In this document: positions 13,545 to 21,495 of the stretch, one piece after another
How the letters are laid out: each line of letters starts with the position of its first letter
Position numbering within the stretch: the first letter of the stretch is position 1
The notes under the pieces: model-generated
The model's input: the letters and a program-made list of their open reading frames with translations, nothing else
Told to the model about the DNA's origin: nothing
Database searches by the model: none
NCBI GenBank assembly: GCA_044233365.1
Contig: JBIIKE010000001.1
Coordinates: 1-37,080 of the forward strand
Source: Bdellovibrionales bacterium
GTDB taxonomy: Bacteria > Patescibacteriota > Patescibacteriia > UBA9570 > XYC2-FULL-38-9
Length of the DNA stretch: 37,080 nt
Reading direction: 5' to 3'
Program-made: the position numbers and the translations under genes

Positions 13545-14216
13545 CTACTTTGCCGCGGCCGCCAGCTTACGTTCTCGCTGGGCGAGCACAACCTGGTGGC
13601 ACTGCCACGCAATCTTGTGGATATCACTTCGCGAGAGCGCTGGCATTGATCGCTTGCACTTGAACGGCATTACCTCCTGGAGCAGGAGGTGGATGCCGAG
13701 CACCGATCGAAGATCTTCGCCGAACAAAAATCTCAGATGCTTTTCCACCAAAGGGGGGAACGCACTGAAATCAAGGTCGATGTCTTCAACCTCAGCGTCA
13801 GGCAAGTGCAAGCGCAGAGCATCACGACCACCGATTTCCACCAACTCATCGGTGAACTTGGTGATCGCGGCAAGAGCTTCTTCAATATCGCTTAAGGCAA
13901 CAACGCGATCTTGAAGAAGCTGAAGCCTGGCACAGTGCAGTAGCACCGAGATGACCTCGCCAGGCATCGCGTTGCCGAACAACTTGTGCCACCGGAAGCG
14001 GTGCCACTCGTCGCAGAGCATGCGAACCCGTTTGGCGTCTCCAGAGCGCCACCGAAAGATCTTCGAACGATCTTCCGGTATAGGGTGGTGACCACTGAAC
14101 ACAGTCACGGGCCTTGCCTTGGGAGTCACCTTGGTTCTACGACGTGTCTTTGGACTCTCCTTTTGCCGATAGCCTTTTGGCCATCGCTGCCCAGGACCCC
14201 GACCACGACCTCTCAT
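13545..14216 (-). CDS. Orphan 223-aa protein with an Arg/Gly/Lys-rich N-terminal tail (GC-rich island gene)
   Basis: GGAGG lies 4 nt upstream of the ATG and the gene has its own downstream terminator. MRGRGRGPGQRWPKGYRQKESPKTRRRTKVTPKARP is followed by a probably helical body with Cys/His/Trp clusters (CDEWHRFRWH, WQCHQ). No family recognised. It is the longest ORF in the island. Confidence 0.55.
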   Translation of the reverse strand: MRGRGRGPGQRWPKGYRQKESPKTRRRTKVTPKARPVTVFSGHHPIPEDRSKIFRWRSGDAKRVRMLCDEWHRFRWHKLFGNAMPGEVISVLLHCARLQLLQDRVVALSDIEEALAAITKFTDELVEIGGRDALRLHLPDAEVEDIDLDFSAFPPLVEKHLRFLFGEDLRSVLGIHLLLQEVMPFKCKRSMPALSRSDIHKIAWQCHQVVLAQRERKLAAAAK

Positions 14217-14352
14217 GCGGCCTCCATGGGTAAAAGGTGCAAAGTTGCCACCAGCATACTAACAATTAAACTTTTTGTCGAATAAAAGTACTCAATCTTA
14301 GCCAGCAAATCACAGCTGGCACGGATTCTTGCGGTCTGTTAGTATCACATAT

Positions 14353-17091
14353 ATGAAAAAACTCCTTATTATCGACGCTCACGCCCTTATTCACCGCGCC
14401 TATCACGCGCTTCCGCCACTCACAACCAGTAACGGAACACCAGTCGGCGCGGTGTATGGTTTTTTACTGATGACAATCAACGCTTTAAAAGACATGAAGC
14501 CAGAAGGCGTTGTTGTCTGTTTTGATTCAAAAGGTCCAACCTTTCGCCACAAACAATTCAAAGACTACAAAGGCACACGCAAAGAAACTGACCCTGATCT
14601 TGTTGCGCAATTTCCGCTCGTTGAAGAAGTAGTAAAAGCATTTGGATTTCCGGTTTTTAAAGTCAGTGGATTTGAAGCAGACGATCTCATTGGCACTATT
14701 TCCACAACTGTTTCGAAAACAAAAAAAACTGATGCAATTATTTTAACTGGCGACATGGATTTGTTGCAGCTCGTCAACGCGCACACGAAAGTATTGCGTC
14801 TTAAAAAAGGCGTAAAAGACATGGAATTATTTGACCGCAAGGCCGTAGAAGCAACTTATGGATTTACTCCTGAACAAGTGATTGAATACAAAGGCTTGCG
14901 TGGTGATACATCAGACAACATTCCAGGTGTTAAAGGCATTGGCGAAAAAGGCGCGACTGAATTATTGAAAGAATTTGGAACTGTTGAACATATTTATAAA
15001 AATCTCGAAAAAATAACTGGTCGCAATCGCAAAGCATTAGAAGGTCAGCAAGACCAAGCCGAAATGTCGCGCGAGCTCGCCACAATCATGTGTGATGCGC
15101 CGATTGAATTTTCTCTCGAAGACGCAAAGATTGGCAAATATAATCAAACAAAAATTCACGCGCTATTTCGAGAGTGGGAATTTCACTCACTGTTGAAACA
15201 GTTGCCGACGCTGCCAGGGTTCCAGAAAAAAGAAGGGCTATTTGCTGAACCAGAAACGGATGAAGAAAAAGCAGAAAACGCAAAACCGATTGATGCAACA
15301 TCGAATTATCGGATGCTCGTGAGTGAAGATGAAATTGGAGCGGCCATGAAAGAGTGTGCGCAAGCTGAGGTGATTGCGGTTGATACAGAAACAACCAGCC
15401 TGTCTGCGGTAAGCGCGGATTTAGTTGGCGTTAGTATTTCATGGAAAGAAGGCGATGGTGTCTATATTCCGTGCATGAATGAAAAAGGTGTGGTGACAGT
15501 CCCAGTGGCACTCCAAAAAATGCTAGAAGACGCAGCGATCAAAAAATCTGGGCATAACATTAAATATGATATTGAAGTACTGCATCATGCTGGCGTGCGG
15601 ATTGCCGGCGTGGTATTTGATTCAATGATCGCGTCGTATATTTTAAATAGTAGTAGCCGCGGCCATGGCCTTGATGCACTCGCGTTTGCATTGTTCGATT
15701 ATGAAATGCAGCCAATTGATGAATTGATTGGAAAAGGTAAAGCGCAAATTTCAATGGCAGATGTGGCACCAGAAAAAGTTGCCTGGTACGCAGCTGAAGA
15801 TGCAGATTTTTCGCTACGGCTCTACAACCACTTTGCGCCGAAGATCAAAAAAGACGGCTACGAACGATTATTTTACGACATTGAAATGGGAACGCTGTTT
15901 GCGCTCGTGCCAATGGAAGAGGCGGGTGTGAAAATTGACGTACCATTTTTGCACGACATGAGCAAAGATCTGCACAAACGCATCGCGATTCTTGATCGTG
16001 AAATTCAAGAGATGGCTGGCGCGCAGTTTAATGTTGGCAGCCCAGTGCAGCTAAAAGAAATTTTGTTCGACAAGATGAAAATCTCGACTGACAAAATTAA
16101 AAAAACAAAAACTGGCTTTTCCACTGCCGCTTCTGAGCTCGAGAAACTGCGTGGACTGCATCCGATTATTGATAAGATTTCTGAATTTCGTGAACTCAAA
16201 AAACTTACATCGACATATATCGACACTTTACCGACACTGATCAATCCAGAAACTGGTCGGATTCACACATCGTATAATCAAACAATTGCGGCAACTGGTC
16301 GCTTGAGCTCGACGGATCCGAATCTGCAAAATATTCCAATTCGCACTGAGCTTGGTCGGCAAATTCGAAAAGCGTTTATTGCAGACAAGGGTCATTCGTT
16401 AGTGTCGCTCGATTATTCGCAGATTGAATTGCGCGTGGTGGCACATTTGAGCGGCGATCCAGTCATGACTGAAGCCTTTCAAAACGGTGAGGATATTCAC
16501 ACAAAAACTGCAGCGGAATTAAATGATGTGCCAATGGACAAAGTGACATCTGATATGCGGCGCGCATCCAAAGCCATTAACTTTGGCATTCTCTACGGAA
16601 TGGGTGTTCAAGGAATTATGCGCGATTCAGGGATTTCCCGCGATGAAGCTCGGATGTTTTTGGATAAATATTTTTCTGTGCACTCAGGAATTCATGACTA
16701 TATTGCGCGCATCAAAGCAGAAACGGAAGAATCGGGCTATGCTGAAACGATGTTTGGTCGCAAACGCTACCTTCCAGACATTCAAGGGAAGAATCCAATG
16801 CTGAAAGCGGCAGCGGAACGGGCGGCTGTGAATATGCCAGTCCAAGGAACAGCCGCAGACATCATGAAACTCGCCATGATCAAAGTTGGTACAGCCATTG
16901 AAGCTGGAAAAATCGATGCGCGGATGTTGCTCCAGGTGCATGATGAACTTGTTTTTGAAATTGAAGATTCAAAAGTGAAATCAGAAACACCGAAGATTCA
17001 AAAAATTATGCAAGAAGTTGTTGAGCTGTCTGTCCCGCTCGATGTGGATGTTGAATACGGAAAAAATTGGGGTGATCAAGAAGAGTTATGA
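14353..17091 (+). CDS. polA: DNA polymerase I (5'-3' exonuclease, 3'-5' exonuclease and polymerase domains)
   Basis: MKKLLIIDAHALIHRAYHA..., GVKGIGEKGA, the exo domain VAVDTETTSL, and polymerase motifs DYSQIELRV, RRASKAINFGILYG and QVHDELVFE. Start set at the ATG at 14353; the track's 14329 is a TTG. Confidence 0.95.
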   Translation: MKKLLIIDAHALIHRAYHALPPLTTSNGTPVGAVYGFLLMTINALKDMKPEGVVVCFDSKGPTFRHKQFKDYKGTRKETDPDLVAQFPLVEEVVKAFGFPVFKVSGFEADDLIGTISTTVSKTKKTDAIILTGDMDLLQLVNAHTKVLRLKKGVKDMELFDRKAVEATYGFTPEQVIEYKGLRGDTSDNIPGVKGIGEKGATELLKEFGTVEHIYKNLEKITGRNRKALEGQQDQAEMSRELATIMCDAPIEFSLEDAKIGKYNQTKIHALFREWEFHSLLKQLPTLPGFQKKEGLFAEPETDEEKAENAKPIDATSNYRMLVSEDEIGAAMKECAQAEVIAVDTETTSLSAVSADLVGVSISWKEGDGVYIPCMNEKGVVTVPVALQKMLEDAAIKKSGHNIKYDIEVLHHAGVRIAGVVFDSMIASYILNSSSRGHGLDALAFALFDYEMQPIDELIGKGKAQISMADVAPEKVAWYAAEDADFSLRLYNHFAPKIKKDGYERLFYDIEMGTLFALVPMEEAGVKIDVPFLHDMSKDLHKRIAILDREIQEMAGAQFNVGSPVQLKEILFDKMKISTDKIKKTKTGFSTAASELEKLRGLHPIIDKISEFRELKKLTSTYIDTLPTLINPETGRIHTSYNQTIAATGRLSSTDPNLQNIPIRTELGRQIRKAFIADKGHSLVSLDYSQIELRVVAHLSGDPVMTEAFQNGEDIHTKTAAELNDVPMDKVTSDMRRASKAINFGILYGMGVQGIMRDSGISRDEARMFLDKYFSVHSGIHDYIARIKAETEESGYAETMFGRKRYLPDIQGKNPMLKAAAERAAVNMPVQGTAADIMKLAMIKVGTAIEAGKIDARMLLQVHDELVFEIEDSKVKSETPKIQKIMQEVVELSVPLDVDVEYGKNWGDQEEL

Positions 17092-18032
17092 TTATCGTGT
17101 TATTGGGCCCAGACAGTTTTCGCAAACGCGAGCGTATTCAGGTGCTGCGCGACGCATTTGTAAAAAAATTTAACGCACCAGATTCAGCCGTGAGTGATTT
17201 GAGCGGCGATGAAGCATCGATTCAACAAATTCAACTCGCACTCGCGGGTGGCGACCTCTTTTCAACAAAAAAATTTGTGGTGTTACGATCAGTTTTTTCG
17301 TTGAAAGACGATGATCAAGCAACGTTGCTTGGATTACTCCAAAAATTATCCGATGATGTGATTTGCGTGCTTGCAGTAGATAGCTTTCCTGCGAAAAAAT
17401 CTGAACTAAAAACTTTTTTAGAGACCGCGGATAAAACCGAACAGTTTCCAGCCCTCACCGTTTTTGAAGCGACCGATTACGTTCAAAATATCTGCCGTAT
17501 ACACGGCATTCACATTGACCAAGCAGTCGCTCGACTGCTCGCGGAAGGTTTTCATGAAGATAGCTGGCAACTACACCTGCGAACCAAAGCGCTCTGCTTC
17601 CAAGTCAAAGGTGACGCAACGCCGACAATCACAAAAGACCACGTCCTTGCCATTCTCCCCGAAGATACGCAAGAAAACTTCTTTGCACTCACCGATGCGA
17701 TCACTGCACGGAATCCGCAACTCATCGCCGAGCTCGTTCACAAACACCTCTCCGAAGGAGCTGCAATTCAACTTCTCACAACAATTATTTTCAAACATCT
17801 GACGTTGCTCCGAATTTTTGTTGGACAACCAACTACTGAACTGAAAGGCATCCATTCATTCGTCCAGCAAAAAGCCAAAGACGGCGCCAAAAAATATGCC
17901 GACACTGAAATTGCCACGGCAATGAACGAGCTCATTCAGCTCGATGTTGACAGTAAGTCTGGCAAACTCCCTGATCCCGAATCCAGACTACTCCTCATCC
18001 TCACAAATCTGTGTACCAAAAAACCGGCCTGA
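17088..18032 (+). CDS. holA: DNA polymerase III delta subunit
   Basis: ATGA overlap with polA. 314 aa. The N-terminus MIIVLLGPDSFRKRERIQVL and the overall helical layout are typical of HolA. The assignment rests on family resemblance and context. Confidence 0.7.
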   Translation: MIIVLLGPDSFRKRERIQVLRDAFVKKFNAPDSAVSDLSGDEASIQQIQLALAGGDLFSTKKFVVLRSVFSLKDDDQATLLGLLQKLSDDVICVLAVDSFPAKKSELKTFLETADKTEQFPALTVFEATDYVQNICRIHGIHIDQAVARLLAEGFHEDSWQLHLRTKALCFQVKGDATPTITKDHVLAILPEDTQENFFALTDAITARNPQLIAELVHKHLSEGAAIQLLTTIIFKHLTLLRIFVGQPTTELKGIHSFVQQKAKDGAKKYADTEIATAMNELIQLDVDSKSGKLPDPESRLLLILTNLCTKKPA

Positions 18033-18045
18033 GCCGGTTTTTTCT
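18017..18045. terminator. Bidirectional terminator between the convergent holA and rpsT
   Basis: aaaaAACCGGC ctga GCCGGTTtttttc: an A-run before and a T-run after a 7-bp GC-rich stem. Confidence 0.7.
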
Positions 18046-18046
18046 A

Positions 18047-18310
18047 TTACGCTTTTTTTGCTTTCGCTGATTTTGCAACTTGCGCTTTTAAACGAGACGC
18101 TTTGTTTGGGTGAATGACATTACGCTTTGCTGCTTTGTCGAGCGCTTTTTGCGCTTTCACCACTAACGCTTCAACGTCTTTCGCACCTTCCTTTAAAGCG
18201 TGTTCCAAGTTCTTCATCGCTTCTTTGATTGCTTTACGCTTTACGTTATTGAGCGCTGTACGTTTTTTTGTTTGACGGATTGCTTTACGTGAATTGGCTT
18301 TATTTGCCAT
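18047..18310 (-). CDS. rpsT: 30S ribosomal protein S20
   Basis: MANKANSRKAIRQTKKRTALNNVKRKAIKEAMKNLEHAL...: typical S20 sequence, composition and length (87 aa). Confidence 0.9.
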   Translation of the reverse strand: MANKANSRKAIRQTKKRTALNNVKRKAIKEAMKNLEHALKEGAKDVEALVVKAQKALDKAAKRNVIHPNKASRLKAQVAKSAKAKKA

Positions 18311-18611
18311 AAGAATAAATAGGTAGAATGATAATAATTGTTTGGGACAATTTGTATATAGAATTTGAGAGCCTCAAAACACTACCAAACAATAATAGAA
18401 ATTGCAACTACCTTGACCAAGGTGCAATGCATAGTGAAAAACACTTGCGTCTGAGAATAAGCAGTGAGACTGGAATGTGCCGTGCGCTTGGAAGATCACC
18501 TCCCTGCTTTTTGAAAGCAACGAGGCGAACCGTCCACAACGCTGCCAGACACGCTACTATTCTCGGGCTTTTCTTTTATTCAAAGTATAAAACCTTGGTG
18601 ATGTGGTGCAG

Positions 18612-18655
18612 CATGTTTTCAAAACTCAGCACGCATGCTGTTCTTTGAAAACATG
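18612..18655. other. 44-nt near-perfect hairpin in non-coding DNA
   Basis: CATGTTTTCAAA (18612-18623) pairs with TTTGAAAACATG (18644-18655). An inner stem CAGCA/TGCTG has a 4-nt loop. No U-run follows on either strand. Confidence 0.5.
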
Positions 18656-18706
18656 GCCTGCCAGAACACGAAGAATCGTACCTAACAGACGTGACGACGC
18701 ACTCAC

Positions 18707-18979
18707 TCAGCCAATACCTCCCCTGTCTCGGACAATCTGTTGCCAAGACGGGCCGTGGAAGGCCGTACGAATCGCATGCACCCACTCAGACTCGCCGGGC
18801 CGTCGAGCCAACGAAGCATCCCTAGTCGCCCACTCCTGAGCGACGAGCTGAGGCCCCACCTCTGCGGGGCCATGCGATGCTGCGCACGCCTCTGCGATAC
18901 GAGCCCTAATCCGCAGCTCATCAATACTTGGCGCGGCAAACAAGTCTATTCTTTTTTGACCGTCAGAGTCATGTGACAA
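18707..18979 (-). CDS. Orphan 90-aa ORF in a GC-rich patch (coding status uncertain)
   Basis: GAGGAGGTG lies 11 nt upstream of the ATG (GGAGG ends 13 nt upstream). MSHDSDGQKRIDLFAAPSIDELRIRARIAEACAASHGPAEVGPQLVAQEWATRD.... Sampled lines in 18781-18900 are 65-68% GC. No family recognised. Confidence 0.35.
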   Translation of the reverse strand: MSHDSDGQKRIDLFAAPSIDELRIRARIAEACAASHGPAEVGPQLVAQEWATRDASLARRPGESEWVHAIRTAFHGPSWQQIVRDRGGIG

Positions 18980-19035
18980 AGTGCACCTCCTCTATGTCTA
19001 TAGAGACTAACAAACTACAAAAATATGTCTAGCCT

Positions 19036-19434
19036 TTAAAATAATGACGCATCTGGTCGCAACTTCGAGCTTTTATATATCCCTGGCTCAAACGATTCTA
19101 GTCGCACAGCTTTTGCTTCCCACTCCGGCGGCAATTTCGCTTTTTGGTCATAGCCCAGCGCGATCACATCTGGCGCGACATCAGTGAGCACCTGCAAGTG
19201 CTTCCCCCACTCTTCATATCCAAGCCGTGCTTCATCAACCACTTCAAACTCCGCGACATTCTGCAAACGCACGTCTTCTGGGTTGTGTGGTCGTCGACCT
19301 TTTAGTCGCTCAACATTCGCGTCGCGCGCGACAACAACAACCAATCGATCGCCTAATTTCGCCGCTTCACGCAAAAAATATTCATGCCCTTTGTGAAAGA
19401 CGTCGTAGGTTCCAAATGCGAGCACTGTTTTCAT
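19036..19434 (-). CDS. Cytidylyltransferase-fold nucleotidyltransferase, RibL-like (archaeal-type FAD synthetase family)
   Basis: MKTVLAFGTYDVFHKGHEYFLREAAKLGDRLVVVVARDANVERLKGRRP has the (T/H)xGH nucleotidyltransferase motif and the RibL-like VVVARDxxVxxxKGRxP block. Start set at the ATG at 19434, 16 nt after the uvrB stop. Confidence 0.7.
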   Translation of the reverse strand: MKTVLAFGTYDVFHKGHEYFLREAAKLGDRLVVVVARDANVERLKGRRPHNPEDVRLQNVAEFEVVDEARLGYEEWGKHLQVLTDVAPDVIALGYDQKAKLPPEWEAKAVRLESFEPGIYKSSKLRPDASLF

Positions 19435-19449
19435 ACCAAAATACAATAA

Positions 19450-21495
19450 TTATCCACGCTTCTTTCGATTGCCAGACTTCGCTTGCTTCGCCAGTTTTTT
19501 CAAATCACCAAACCGCTGCCGAAAGACTGTTTCAAGTTCATCCAAATTGTCTCGCAAGCGTGCGGCTTCTTCAAACTCTAAATTCTCAGCAGCAAGATGC
19601 ATTCGCCCGCGCAACTCGTCGAGTACACGCACAAACTCTGGTTCCTCTAACCGATTTGTAATTTCTGGCGAAATTAATGAGTCATCCACTTCCTCAACTT
19701 TTTTCATTCCACTCAACCGATCATCTCGAATCGCTTTGACAATCGCAGCCGGCACAATATTGTGCTTTTTATTGTATTCCTCTTGCAGTGTACGTCGTCG
19801 ATTAATTTCATCCATCGCGCGTTGCATTGAGCCGGTAATCACATCTGCATACAAAATCGCCGTGCCTTCCAAATGCCGCGCCGCCCGCCCCATGGTTTGT
19901 GTTAACGCTGTTTCTGAACGCAAAAACCCTTCTTTGTCTGCGTCGAGAATCGCCACCAATGAAACCTCGGGCAAATCCAAACCTTCACGCAATAAGTTAA
20001 TGCCGATCAAGACGTCATATTTCCCAAGCCGCAAATCGCGCAAAATCTCAAGACGCTCCATATTATCAACATCAGAATGGATATATTGCACTGCAATGCC
20101 TTGCTCATTCAAATATTCCGTCAGCTCTTCGGCCATCTTTTTTGTCAGTGTTGTAATCAACGCTCTTTGACCATTTTCAATCCGCTCGCGCACACGCTCA
20201 ATCACATCTTTCACTTGCGAGCTAACCGGTTTCACAATAATTTTCGGCTCGGTAATTCCGGTTGGACGAATCAACTGCTCGGCAACCACACTTGTTTTCG
20301 CTTTTTCATATTTCCCTGGCGTTGCGGAGACATAAATTGTTTGCGGCATCCGCTGTTCAAATTCTGTAAATTGCAGTGGACGGTTATCGTATGCCCCGCT
20401 CACCCGAAAACCGTGATCAATCAACGATTCTTTCCGCGATCGATCACCGCCATACATCGCGCCAATTTGCGGAATGGTTTGATGCGACTCATCAATAATC
20501 AATAAATAATCATCCGCAAAATAATCCATCAACGTAAACGGTGGTGACCCCGGTTCGCGACCATCAAAATAACGCGAGTAATTTTCAATGCCGTTGACAT
20601 AGCCAACATTTTCAATCATTTCAAGATCAAACTTTGTGCGTTGCGACAAGCGTTGGGCTTCGACGAGTTTGCCAGCTTTTTCAAAGGCCGCCACTTCGGC
20701 TTTCATATCAGCGCGAATATTCTGAACCGCTTTTGCAAAATATTCATCTGCCGCTTGATACAGCGTTGCTGGAAAAATTGTCACTGTTTGAAAATTTCCA
20801 AACACCTCGCCAGTTAAGACATCAAATTCTGAAATTGCTTCGAGGTCGTTTCCGAAAAAATCAAACCGCAGCGCGCGATGTTCGCTCGACGTTTGAAAGA
20901 CTTCTACAATATCACCACGCACCCGAAAACTTCCGCGATGAAAATCAATATCGTTGCGGGAATATTGCATGTCAACAAGCGCAATCAGCAACTGTTCGCG
21001 GTTCAATCCACCGACCGACACGTCTTTACTGCCGGCCTTGTAACTTTCCGGCGAACCTAAACCATAAATACACGACACACTCGCGACAATAATTGTGTCG
21101 CGCCGCGTTAAAATTGATTGCACGGCCGCGTGCCGCAAACGATCAATCTCTTCATTGATGTCAGTTTCTTTTTCGATGTAGGTATCACTGCGTGCAATAT
21201 ACGCTTCTGGTTGATAATAATCGTAATAACTCACAAAATATTCAACCGCATTTTTCGGGAAAAATTCTCGAAATTCGCCAGCCAGTTGCGCAGCCAGGGT
21301 TTTGTTGTGTGAAATAATCAATGTTGGCTTTTGGGTCTGTGCGATCACATTCGCCATAGTGAATGTTTTTCCAGAACCAGTGACGCCCAATAAAATAGCG
21401 TCTTTTTCATCTGTTTGCACAGCATTCACCAGTGTTTTAATCGCTGTTGGCTGATCACCAGAGGGTTGAAAATTGCTTGCGAGTTCGAATTTCAT
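19450..21495 (-). CDS. uvrB: Excinuclease ABC subunit B
   Basis: GVTGSGKTFTMANVI (Walker A), the DESH box (IIDESHQTIPQ), helicase motifs, and the C-terminal UVR domain (EFEEAARLRDNL). Confidence 0.95.
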   Translation of the reverse strand: MKFELASNFQPSGDQPTAIKTLVNAVQTDEKDAILLGVTGSGKTFTMANVIAQTQKPTLIISHNKTLAAQLAGEFREFFPKNAVEYFVSYYDYYQPEAYIARSDTYIEKETDINEEIDRLRHAAVQSILTRRDTIIVASVSCIYGLGSPESYKAGSKDVSVGGLNREQLLIALVDMQYSRNDIDFHRGSFRVRGDIVEVFQTSSEHRALRFDFFGNDLEAISEFDVLTGEVFGNFQTVTIFPATLYQAADEYFAKAVQNIRADMKAEVAAFEKAGKLVEAQRLSQRTKFDLEMIENVGYVNGIENYSRYFDGREPGSPPFTLMDYFADDYLLIIDESHQTIPQIGAMYGGDRSRKESLIDHGFRVSGAYDNRPLQFTEFEQRMPQTIYVSATPGKYEKAKTSVVAEQLIRPTGITEPKIIVKPVSSQVKDVIERVRERIENGQRALITTLTKKMAEELTEYLNEQGIAVQYIHSDVDNMERLEILRDLRLGKYDVLIGINLLREGLDLPEVSLVAILDADKEGFLRSETALTQTMGRAARHLEGTAILYADVITGSMQRAMDEINRRRTLQEEYNKKHNIVPAAIVKAIRDDRLSGMKKVEEVDDSLISPEITNRLEEPEFVRVLDELRGRMHLAAENLEFEEAARLRDNLDELETVFRQRFGDLKKLAKQAKSGNRKKRG

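Follow-up and report, generated by a model that had tools for sequence, protein, structure and literature searches.

The 725-nt gap between a CTP_transf_like/RibL-like gene (hereafter ribL) and rpsT, the gene for ribosomal protein S20, in a 37,080-nt stretch of Patescibacteria DNA (hereafter the window; contig JBIIKE010000001.1, gap at 18311-19035) probably marks an accessory-gene slot, i.e., a recombination hot spot. What now fills it is probably the remains left after an ancestral operon of marR and a major facilitator superfamily (MFS) transporter gene was deleted. The finding is mostly a matter of ordinary genome flux: a small accessory slot, a deletion scar, and an orphan open reading frame (ORF). 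The window belongs to G000, an 846-kb, 82%-complete bin from a “Kerfeldbacteria”-like family of Patescibacteria. Its minus strand carries uvrB (21495-19450), ribL, the gap, and rpsT, in that order; holA and polA lie on the plus strand and converge toward rpsT.

Is the gap real? It is the longest noncoding stretch of the window, as the initial annotation had recognized, although the maximum of ~200 nt given there for other gaps is too low: the ORF table shows gaps of up to about 280-330 nt. Over 3610 nt, the window and an independent Logan assembly (L039) agree at every position (100% identity), and a Joint Genome Institute (JGI) contig has the same gene layout; the gap is therefore not an assembly artifact.

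Junction content differs between close relatives

How variable is the ribL-rpsT junction across the family? We compared seven genus-level loci—the window (G000), L030 (a sister strain of the window, with ~95% nucleotide identity), L008 and L009 (the loci of G001 and G002), L031, L032, and L041—with loci from other genera. A metagenome scan for further genus-level loci returned just one distant locus. All through the family, uvrB, ribL, and rpsT keep this order and converge with holA-polA, and the ribL-rpsT spacer measures about 65-150 nt in six other genera (G011, G009, G007, G003, G005, and G004). From these short outgroup spacers, it follows that a short spacer is ancestral and that the junction is a site of recurrent gene gain and loss. 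The test first proposed, whether sister genomes have a short spacer, thus finds one in the other genera; the genus itself is hypervariable.

Within the genus, there are seven different junction states. The junctions of G001 and G002 (2.85 and 2.70 kb) carry marR (PF01047) followed by a gene for a 562-aa MFS_1 transporter, both Pfam-confirmed, and the L032 junction carries a Na/Ca exchanger (Na_Ca_ex) on the opposite strand. The remaining spacers measure 256 nt in L031, 448 nt in L041, and 928 nt in L030. Only window positions 18311 to about 18418 (~108 nt) are common to all seven loci. Farther afield, the G010 junction (L026 8449-14612) extends over 6.1 kb and encodes an HD/YfbR-like protein, two SET-domain proteins, and an 1135-aa protein, and the G008 junction spans 1.65 kb with a GC-rich ORF. 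The latter (L025 6722-8218) has 498 codons, 60-70% GC, and 79% GC at third codon positions, with no Pfam match at 1e-5. Conserved core flanks therefore enclose content that differs even between close relatives, and the outgroups preserve the short, “empty” state.

Part of this content is compositionally atypical. The distal part of the gap had been described as GC-rich, and we find 62-65% GC in 150-nt intervals at 18700-18925, vs. 46% window-wide. Shine-Dalgarno (SD) sequences almost never precede the backbone genes of the window, and the GC-rich ORFs at 7422-8084, 13545-14216, and 18707-18979 have GGAGG. SD-led, GC-rich ORFs amid an SD-poor backbone fit a foreign origin. The 16S rRNA of the genus (L042, from G001) still ends in GGATCACCTCCTTTCT. 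We rejected a repeat or mobile-element reading of the gap segment, which is single-copy in the genome. Nor do the neighboring ORFs include an integrase that would point to a site-specific mobile element, and the hairpin at 18612-18655 also occurs once in the genome. We infer that cargo was exchanged by homologous recombination between the core flanks.

A probable deletion scar

Both flanks of the marR-MFS operon of G001 have homologs in the window. Positions 18612-18680, a block containing a 44-nt hairpin (hairpin D), match G001 just upstream of marR with 93% identity (L008 5953-6021), and positions 18311-18584 match G001 just downstream of the MFS terminator with 88% identity over 274 nt (L008 8265-8537). 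Between these flanks, the window has 27 nt where G001 has 2243 bp, comprising the −10 of the marR promoter, an operator-like palindrome, marR, the MFS gene, and its terminator. The junction of L030 is the same as that of the window.

How old is the operon? At four-fold degenerate sites, marR-MFS is 61-66% identical between G001 and G002, and the flanking core genes are 45-57% identical. This divergence, close to that of the core flanks, implies that the operon is about as old as the genus. The relationships of G000 change across the slot: in the comparison of window 14329-21495 with L008 and L009, it lies nearer G001 on the uvrB/ribL side (four-fold identity 64-74% vs. 50-52%) and nearer G002 on the rpsT/holA/polA side, where the rpsT protein is 99-100% identical. 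Such mosaic ancestry places a recombination breakpoint in or next to the gap. Loss of marR-MFS in the lineage of G000 and L030 is the most parsimonious history on either topology, and the event was, by inference, a deletion rather than an insertion. The description of the gap as the decaying remnant of a foreign insertion came closest among the four options first offered. It was largely right in view of the accessory slot and the short outgroup spacer, but we read the scar in the window itself as a deletion.

We propose that the gap, read along the minus strand, has five successive parts (Table 1). A GC-rich, SD-led orphan ORF, evolving near neutrality and shortened in frame relative to the sister strain, would be cotranscribed with uvrB-ribL. 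A conserved stem-loop would then end this uvrB-ribL-ORF unit and, in relatives, would also serve as an A/T-rich upstream element of the marR promoter. Next would come the deletion junction, followed by a putative structured element of ~190 nt, located in G001 after the MFS terminator and before rpsT. Last would stand the genus-wide rpsT promoter with its short leader.

Table 1. Features of the ribL-rpsT junction and its core flanks in the window
Feature	Position	Strand	Details
RibL-like cytidylyltransferase gene, upstream core flank of slot	19036-19446	−	PF01467, E = 8e-14; uvrB-ribL-rpsT order kept in 9 other family genomes
Spacer between ribL and small ORF	18980-19035	−	SD sequence GAGGAGG at 18986-18992
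GC-rich orphan ORF, 90 aa, TTG start	18707-18979	−	In-frame shortened version of L030 159-aa ORF
Conserved block with 44-nt hairpin (hairpin D, 18612-18655)	18612-18680	−	Adjoins −35 of marR promoter in relatives
Junction where relatives carry marR and MFS genes	18585-18611	−	−10-like TATACT at 18584-18589
Lineage-restricted structured element (“Part B”), candidate small RNA or distal leader	18392-18584	−	Long hairpin 18449-18568, small hairpin 18433-18445, hairpin 18403-18431
rpsT promoter and 5′ leader	18311-18408	−	−35 TTGCAA 18403-18408, 17-nt spacer, −10 TAGTGT 18380-18385
Leader box GCTCTCAA	18365-18372	−	Within rpsT leader
Small leader stem-loop TTGTCCCAAACAA	Within 18311-18408	−	rpsT leader
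rpsT (ribosomal protein S20), downstream core flank of slot	18047-18310	−	PF01649, E = 3.8e-16

The 90-aa ORF

Does the GC-rich part of the gap encode a protein? The 90-aa ORF is preceded by an SD sequence and has no recognizable domain, as had been noted from the sequence, and neither Pfam nor PHROG contains a match. A search of 5.8e9 clustered proteins returned only the ORF itself, and the 159-aa form of L030 retrieved, among 1.84e9 representative proteins, only itself and the window ORF. Domain, sequence, and fold searches with the small ORF gave no specific match. Relative to the L030 form, the window ORF has lost ~69 codons near the N terminus; the difference is in frame and the stop is common to both.

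The ORF might be a functional small protein from a strain-specific family of coiled coils, shortened but kept by selection, although we consider this on the unlikely side. Several features would suit such a protein. The first 62 nt after ribL, which include the SD sequence and the start codon, are 100% identical in L030. The frame has stayed open in both strains despite ~27% divergence, while all other frames are stopped in at least one strain, and the length difference (159 vs. 90 aa) is a multiple of three. AlphaFold2 (AF2) models the L030 form confidently as a long helical hairpin, with a predicted local distance difference test (pLDDT) score of 87.5.

Other observations speak against function. 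The two ORFs share 57% amino acid identity over 72 residues, vs. 97.5% for core proteins, and the ratio of nonsynonymous to synonymous substitution (dN/dS) between the window and L030 is 0.75 over 73 common codons, vs. 0.11 for holA. The proportion of synonymous differences (pS) is 0.32 in the small ORF vs. 0.16 at neighboring four-fold sites. In the AF2 model, the window form is poorly folded (pLDDT 58), its first helix and half of the second being absent. No homolog exists beyond L030 in the protein collections searched, one gene caller left the ORF uncalled in the identical L039 contig, and we estimate that GC-rich DNA keeps a 73-codon frame open by chance in ~9% of cases. With two family members worldwide and a dN/dS far above that of holA, the ORF lacks the signature of a coding gene under purifying selection. 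It is an orphan and at best a very weakly constrained gene, and it may be decaying.

A different family of mini-ORFs follows ribL in other members of the genus, at L008 5719-5925, L041 442-633, and L009 7782-7928 (minus strand). These ORFs are GC-rich, SD-led, and proline-rich, and they encode 48-68 aa. Those of G001 and L041 have the motif GPGTLHxxExDRW in common (pairwise E = 4e-6), and that of G002 aligned weakly. The family has no profile similarity to the window ORF, and the GC-rich cores of G000, G001, and G002 show no mutual homology by blastn, tblastx, or hhalign.

The structured element upstream of rpsT

Could the noncoding part of the gap specify an RNA? An unannotated structured RNA had been among the first proposals, and only 18392-18584 stays a candidate, with conservation above the neutral level but covariation that is not significant with three sequences. 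The predicted fold on the minus strand is dominated by a 123-nt hairpin (18448-18570; −50 kcal/mol), and the stem noted earlier around 18497-18527 is indeed present, as its tip. G-U pairs make this hairpin more stable on the minus strand (z = −4.45) than as read from the plus strand (z = −3.17). The hairpin first reported at 18402-18427 is also present, although it is thermodynamically unremarkable (z = −0.4); as delimited here (18403-18431), it overlaps the −35 of rpsT. A proposed long-range pairing between 18592-18599 and 18416-18423 is complementary at 8/8 positions, but relatives do not preserve it: the arms mismatch in L030, and G001 lacks the left one.

We consider it somewhat unlikely that 18392-18584 is a functional, lineage-specific structured RNA of the minus strand, a possibility that would be compatible with a deletion scar in a variable slot. 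Such an RNA could take two forms: an independent small RNA (sRNA) of ~190 nt, starting from a promoter near 18584-18589 and ending where a hairpin and a U-rich tract lie (18390-18431), or else a distal rpsT leader transcribed from an upstream promoter. In favor of an RNA, the element shows 88% identity with G001 and about 93% with L030, and, over the 274 nt of the flank in which it lies, identity between G000 and G001 exceeds that at the four-fold sites of the flanking genes (36-74%; 51% overall) and in the rpsT coding region (77%). The stability and strand bias of the long hairpin are in line with a minus-strand RNA, as is the pattern of substitution. RNAalifold on the three sequences predicts 68 pairs, with 13 pair-keeping changes (2 compensatory and 11 one-sided) vs. 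6 broken. By our own count, variable columns are ~2.6-fold enriched in unpaired positions (11/37 vs. 10/86; Fisher P about 0.02). In hairpin 18403-18431, all five substitutions between G000 and G001 (5/5) keep pairing, one of them compensatory.

Against an RNA stand the covariation, which with three sequences does not rise above a shuffle control (283/500), and the derivation of the structure from the same sequences on which it was scored. The element is present in G000, L030, and G001 and absent from G002, L031, L032, and L041; a covariance model of the 123-nt hairpin, run on 61 genomes, matches G000 and G001 only and misses 58 other relatives in addition to G002. A recent recombination tract in this mosaic region could also give high identity, and the promoter and terminator are weak or putative. 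There is no Rfam match: the whole gap yields no family at the gathering score of Rfam 15, and at E up to 10 only chance-level similarities to che1, mir-764, and MIR1428 appear (19-25 bits vs. cutoffs of 54-82).

It is unlikely, though conceivable, that the element is a new genus-restricted RNA that selection kept after the efflux operon was lost. Such an RNA would consist of the 123-nt hairpin, irregular and with GGGAGG sequestered in it, the small hairpin, and a terminal hairpin over the rpsT −35; it would act by itself as an sRNA or, as a distal attenuating leader, couple upstream transcription to rpsT expression. If transcribed, the 190-nt segment would be a new lineage-specific RNA, and it is the sole element of the gap of possible wider interest.

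Could the long hairpin instead belong to a widespread RNA? An identity with signal recognition particle (SRP) RNA or 6S RNA was rejected on the results of the dedicated model, and absence of the hairpin from most relatives excludes a universal RNA. Neither SRP RNA (RF00169, RF01854) nor 6S RNA (RF00013) was found in G000, G001, or G002 at E up to 1, with controls detected; two of the three genomes are at least 97% complete. Probably, the genus has a divergent SRP RNA that the Rfam models miss.

The stem of the long hairpin sequesters the tract GGAGGTGATC (18485-18494, minus strand), whose 10 nt are all complementary to the 16S 3′ end of the genus. Only GGGAGG within the tract is conserved in L030 and G001, and no start codon follows. 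We rejected rRNA mimicry, as the similarity to 16S is limited to this 10-nt anti-SD complement and is not conserved.

The statement that the proximal 396 nt hold no credible ORF needs only slight amendment: gene callers do call a 106-aa ORF on the plus strand at 18328-18648, but it is spurious, its halves lying 2.2 kb apart in G001. We likewise rejected as coding a 48-aa ORF, the 106-aa ORF, and other frames across the hairpin region, in which changes are mostly nonsynonymous.

The rpsT promoter and leader

How much of the gap could regulate rpsT? In Escherichia coli, rpsT mRNA is autoregulated and has two promoters, and a cis-regulatory leader had been suggested for the ~400-nt noncoding tract. 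The sequence TTGCAA-N17-TAGTGT is conserved in all seven genus loci, and other genera have a consensus-like rpsT promoter followed by GCTCTCAC about 10-13 nt past the −10. Positions 18392-18706 do not behave as an S20 autoregulatory leader should, as they lie upstream of this common promoter and the 18392-18584 element is absent in other genera as well as in much of the genus. The leader proposal can hold for at most the proximal ~75-108 nt common to the genus; the 400-nt tract is upstream of the conserved promoter and missing in most relatives. If the lineage has a cis-regulatory rpsT leader, it would thus be a short proximal segment and not the 400-nt tract. The leader hairpins of 4-6 bp show no significant folding stability.

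In most family genera (L021, L024, L025, L027, L028, and L029), a GCTCTCA(C/A) box occurs ~10-13 nt downstream of the rpsT −10, often preceded by a partial copy, tctcaagcacGCTCTCAC. This box is a candidate for a conserved element in the rpsT leader or initial transcribed region. Beyond rpsT, a perfect 11-bp stem (AAAAAACCGGC/GCCGGTTTTTT) at window 18018-18043 stands between the convergent holA and rpsT and is a bidirectional terminator; weak matches to the OrzO-P, RsmY, and isrK models at this position are due to the stem.

Hairpin D

The initial annotation had singled out the 44-nt hairpin at 18612-18655, and in fact no other short-range inverted repeat in 33.7 kb is as long. Hairpin D folds with −25.5 kcal/mol (z = −4.3) in the window and with −12 to −19 kcal/mol in relatives. 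It is present in 5/7 genus-level loci, with a variant in L041. Like the structured element, its block is conserved above the neutral rate: identity is 93% between the window and G001 and 97% between L030 and G001, vs. 51% at four-fold sites. The 3′ half of the block, TGCTG.G.TTTGAAAA.ATG, is invariant in 5/5 copies; in G001 and G002, the −35 of the next promoter follows it directly. G002 has a second copy, after a canonical terminator, in which the 5′ arm has degenerated.

What might hairpin D do? In relatives, it has the U-rich tails GAUGUUUUGUU and AUGUUUUUU, which suggest a terminator role. In the window, CUGCACCAC follows the stem on the minus strand, and a terminator scan reported the inner stem only, on the plus strand. 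Hairpin D may have two roles, as a stem-loop terminating the transcript of ribL and the small ORF and as an A/T-rich upstream (UP) element of the following promoter. It is single-copy in the genome, and no other island of the window has such a hairpin, which argues against an attC-like site or a miniature inverted-repeat transposable element (MITE).

Weighing deletion against insertion

Some observations weigh against a deletion scar in a recombination hot spot. Beyond hairpin D, the window junction and the marR promoter of G001 align poorly, at about 10/29 positions; hairpin D has no U-run on the minus strand of the window and so is not a canonical intrinsic terminator there; and there are no recombinase, repeats, or target duplications at the slot. 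The first of these touches the converse history, in which the window preserves the ancestral arrangement and the lineages of G001 and G002 gained marR-MFS by insertion between hairpin and structured element. This history is quite improbable. In its favor, the window and L030 differ from G001 in the sequence immediately past the hairpin, and the slot does accept insertions in other genera. However, the cassette has diverged between G001 and G002 about as much as the core flanks, the two genomes have the same left junction, and G000 nests with one or the other depending on the flank, so that marR-MFS would have to have been gained twice or transferred long ago.

A toxin-antitoxin-like module, proposed at the outset, is highly improbable, as is an integron-like cassette in which the hairpin would be an attC-type site. 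A small SD-led ORF does adjoin a long imperfect palindrome, nonhomologous small ORFs occupy the same slot across species, and in G002 the hairpin stands on both sides of the ORF. However, the single, hydrophilic, helical ORF of the window has no partner gene and belongs to no Pfam or PHROG family. No integrase is nearby, and the hairpin sequence occurs once in the genome, with the other GC-rich islands of the window not flanked by such hairpins.

Deletion of marR-MFS from a variable slot remains our preferred explanation. The apparent anomaly is then a documented micro hot spot of gene gain and loss in a reduced genome of the candidate phyla radiation (CPR). Within one genus, the contents of this 0.07-6 kb junction range from an efflux operon or an ion exchanger to orphan mini-genes and next to nothing, which gives context for the flexible gene pool kept by streamlined Patescibacteria. 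Annotators should take it as a caution that the ORFs called in the gap (90 and 106 aa) are weak or spurious.

Comparison with known systems

How does the junction compare with known systems? MarR-regulated MFS efflux operons of the DHA2/EmrB type are carried here by G001 and G002, where the promoter is sigma70-like and a palindrome separates the −10 from the start codon. The window differs in having neither gene nor palindrome; it retains only the hairpin block on the upstream side and the flank on the downstream side. The structured element resembles bacterial sRNA genes and ribosomal-protein leaders in being a stable, conserved, strand-biased hairpin upstream of rpsT, and a possible upstream promoter could make it a distal leader. 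Unlike these, it lies upstream of a promoter common to all relatives, is absent from most rpsT-bearing genomes, and belongs to no Rfam family. The window ORF is like other orphan (taxonomically restricted) small ORFs: it has no homolog outside one species cluster, is weakly constrained, and has a simple helical prediction. Its sole notable feature is the in-frame 69-codon length difference between strains that are ~95% identical.

The closest parallel is with genomic islands and hot-spot regions. The slot differs from these in being very small, in bearing none of the hallmarks of site-specific integration, such as a tRNA, an integrase, or direct repeats, and, in the window, in keeping a scar without cargo. 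As in those regions, conserved core flanks (uvrB-ribL and rpsT-holA-polA) frame cargo that differs between close relatives, part of this cargo is compositionally atypical (GC-rich and SD-led), and ancestry is mosaic across the slot.

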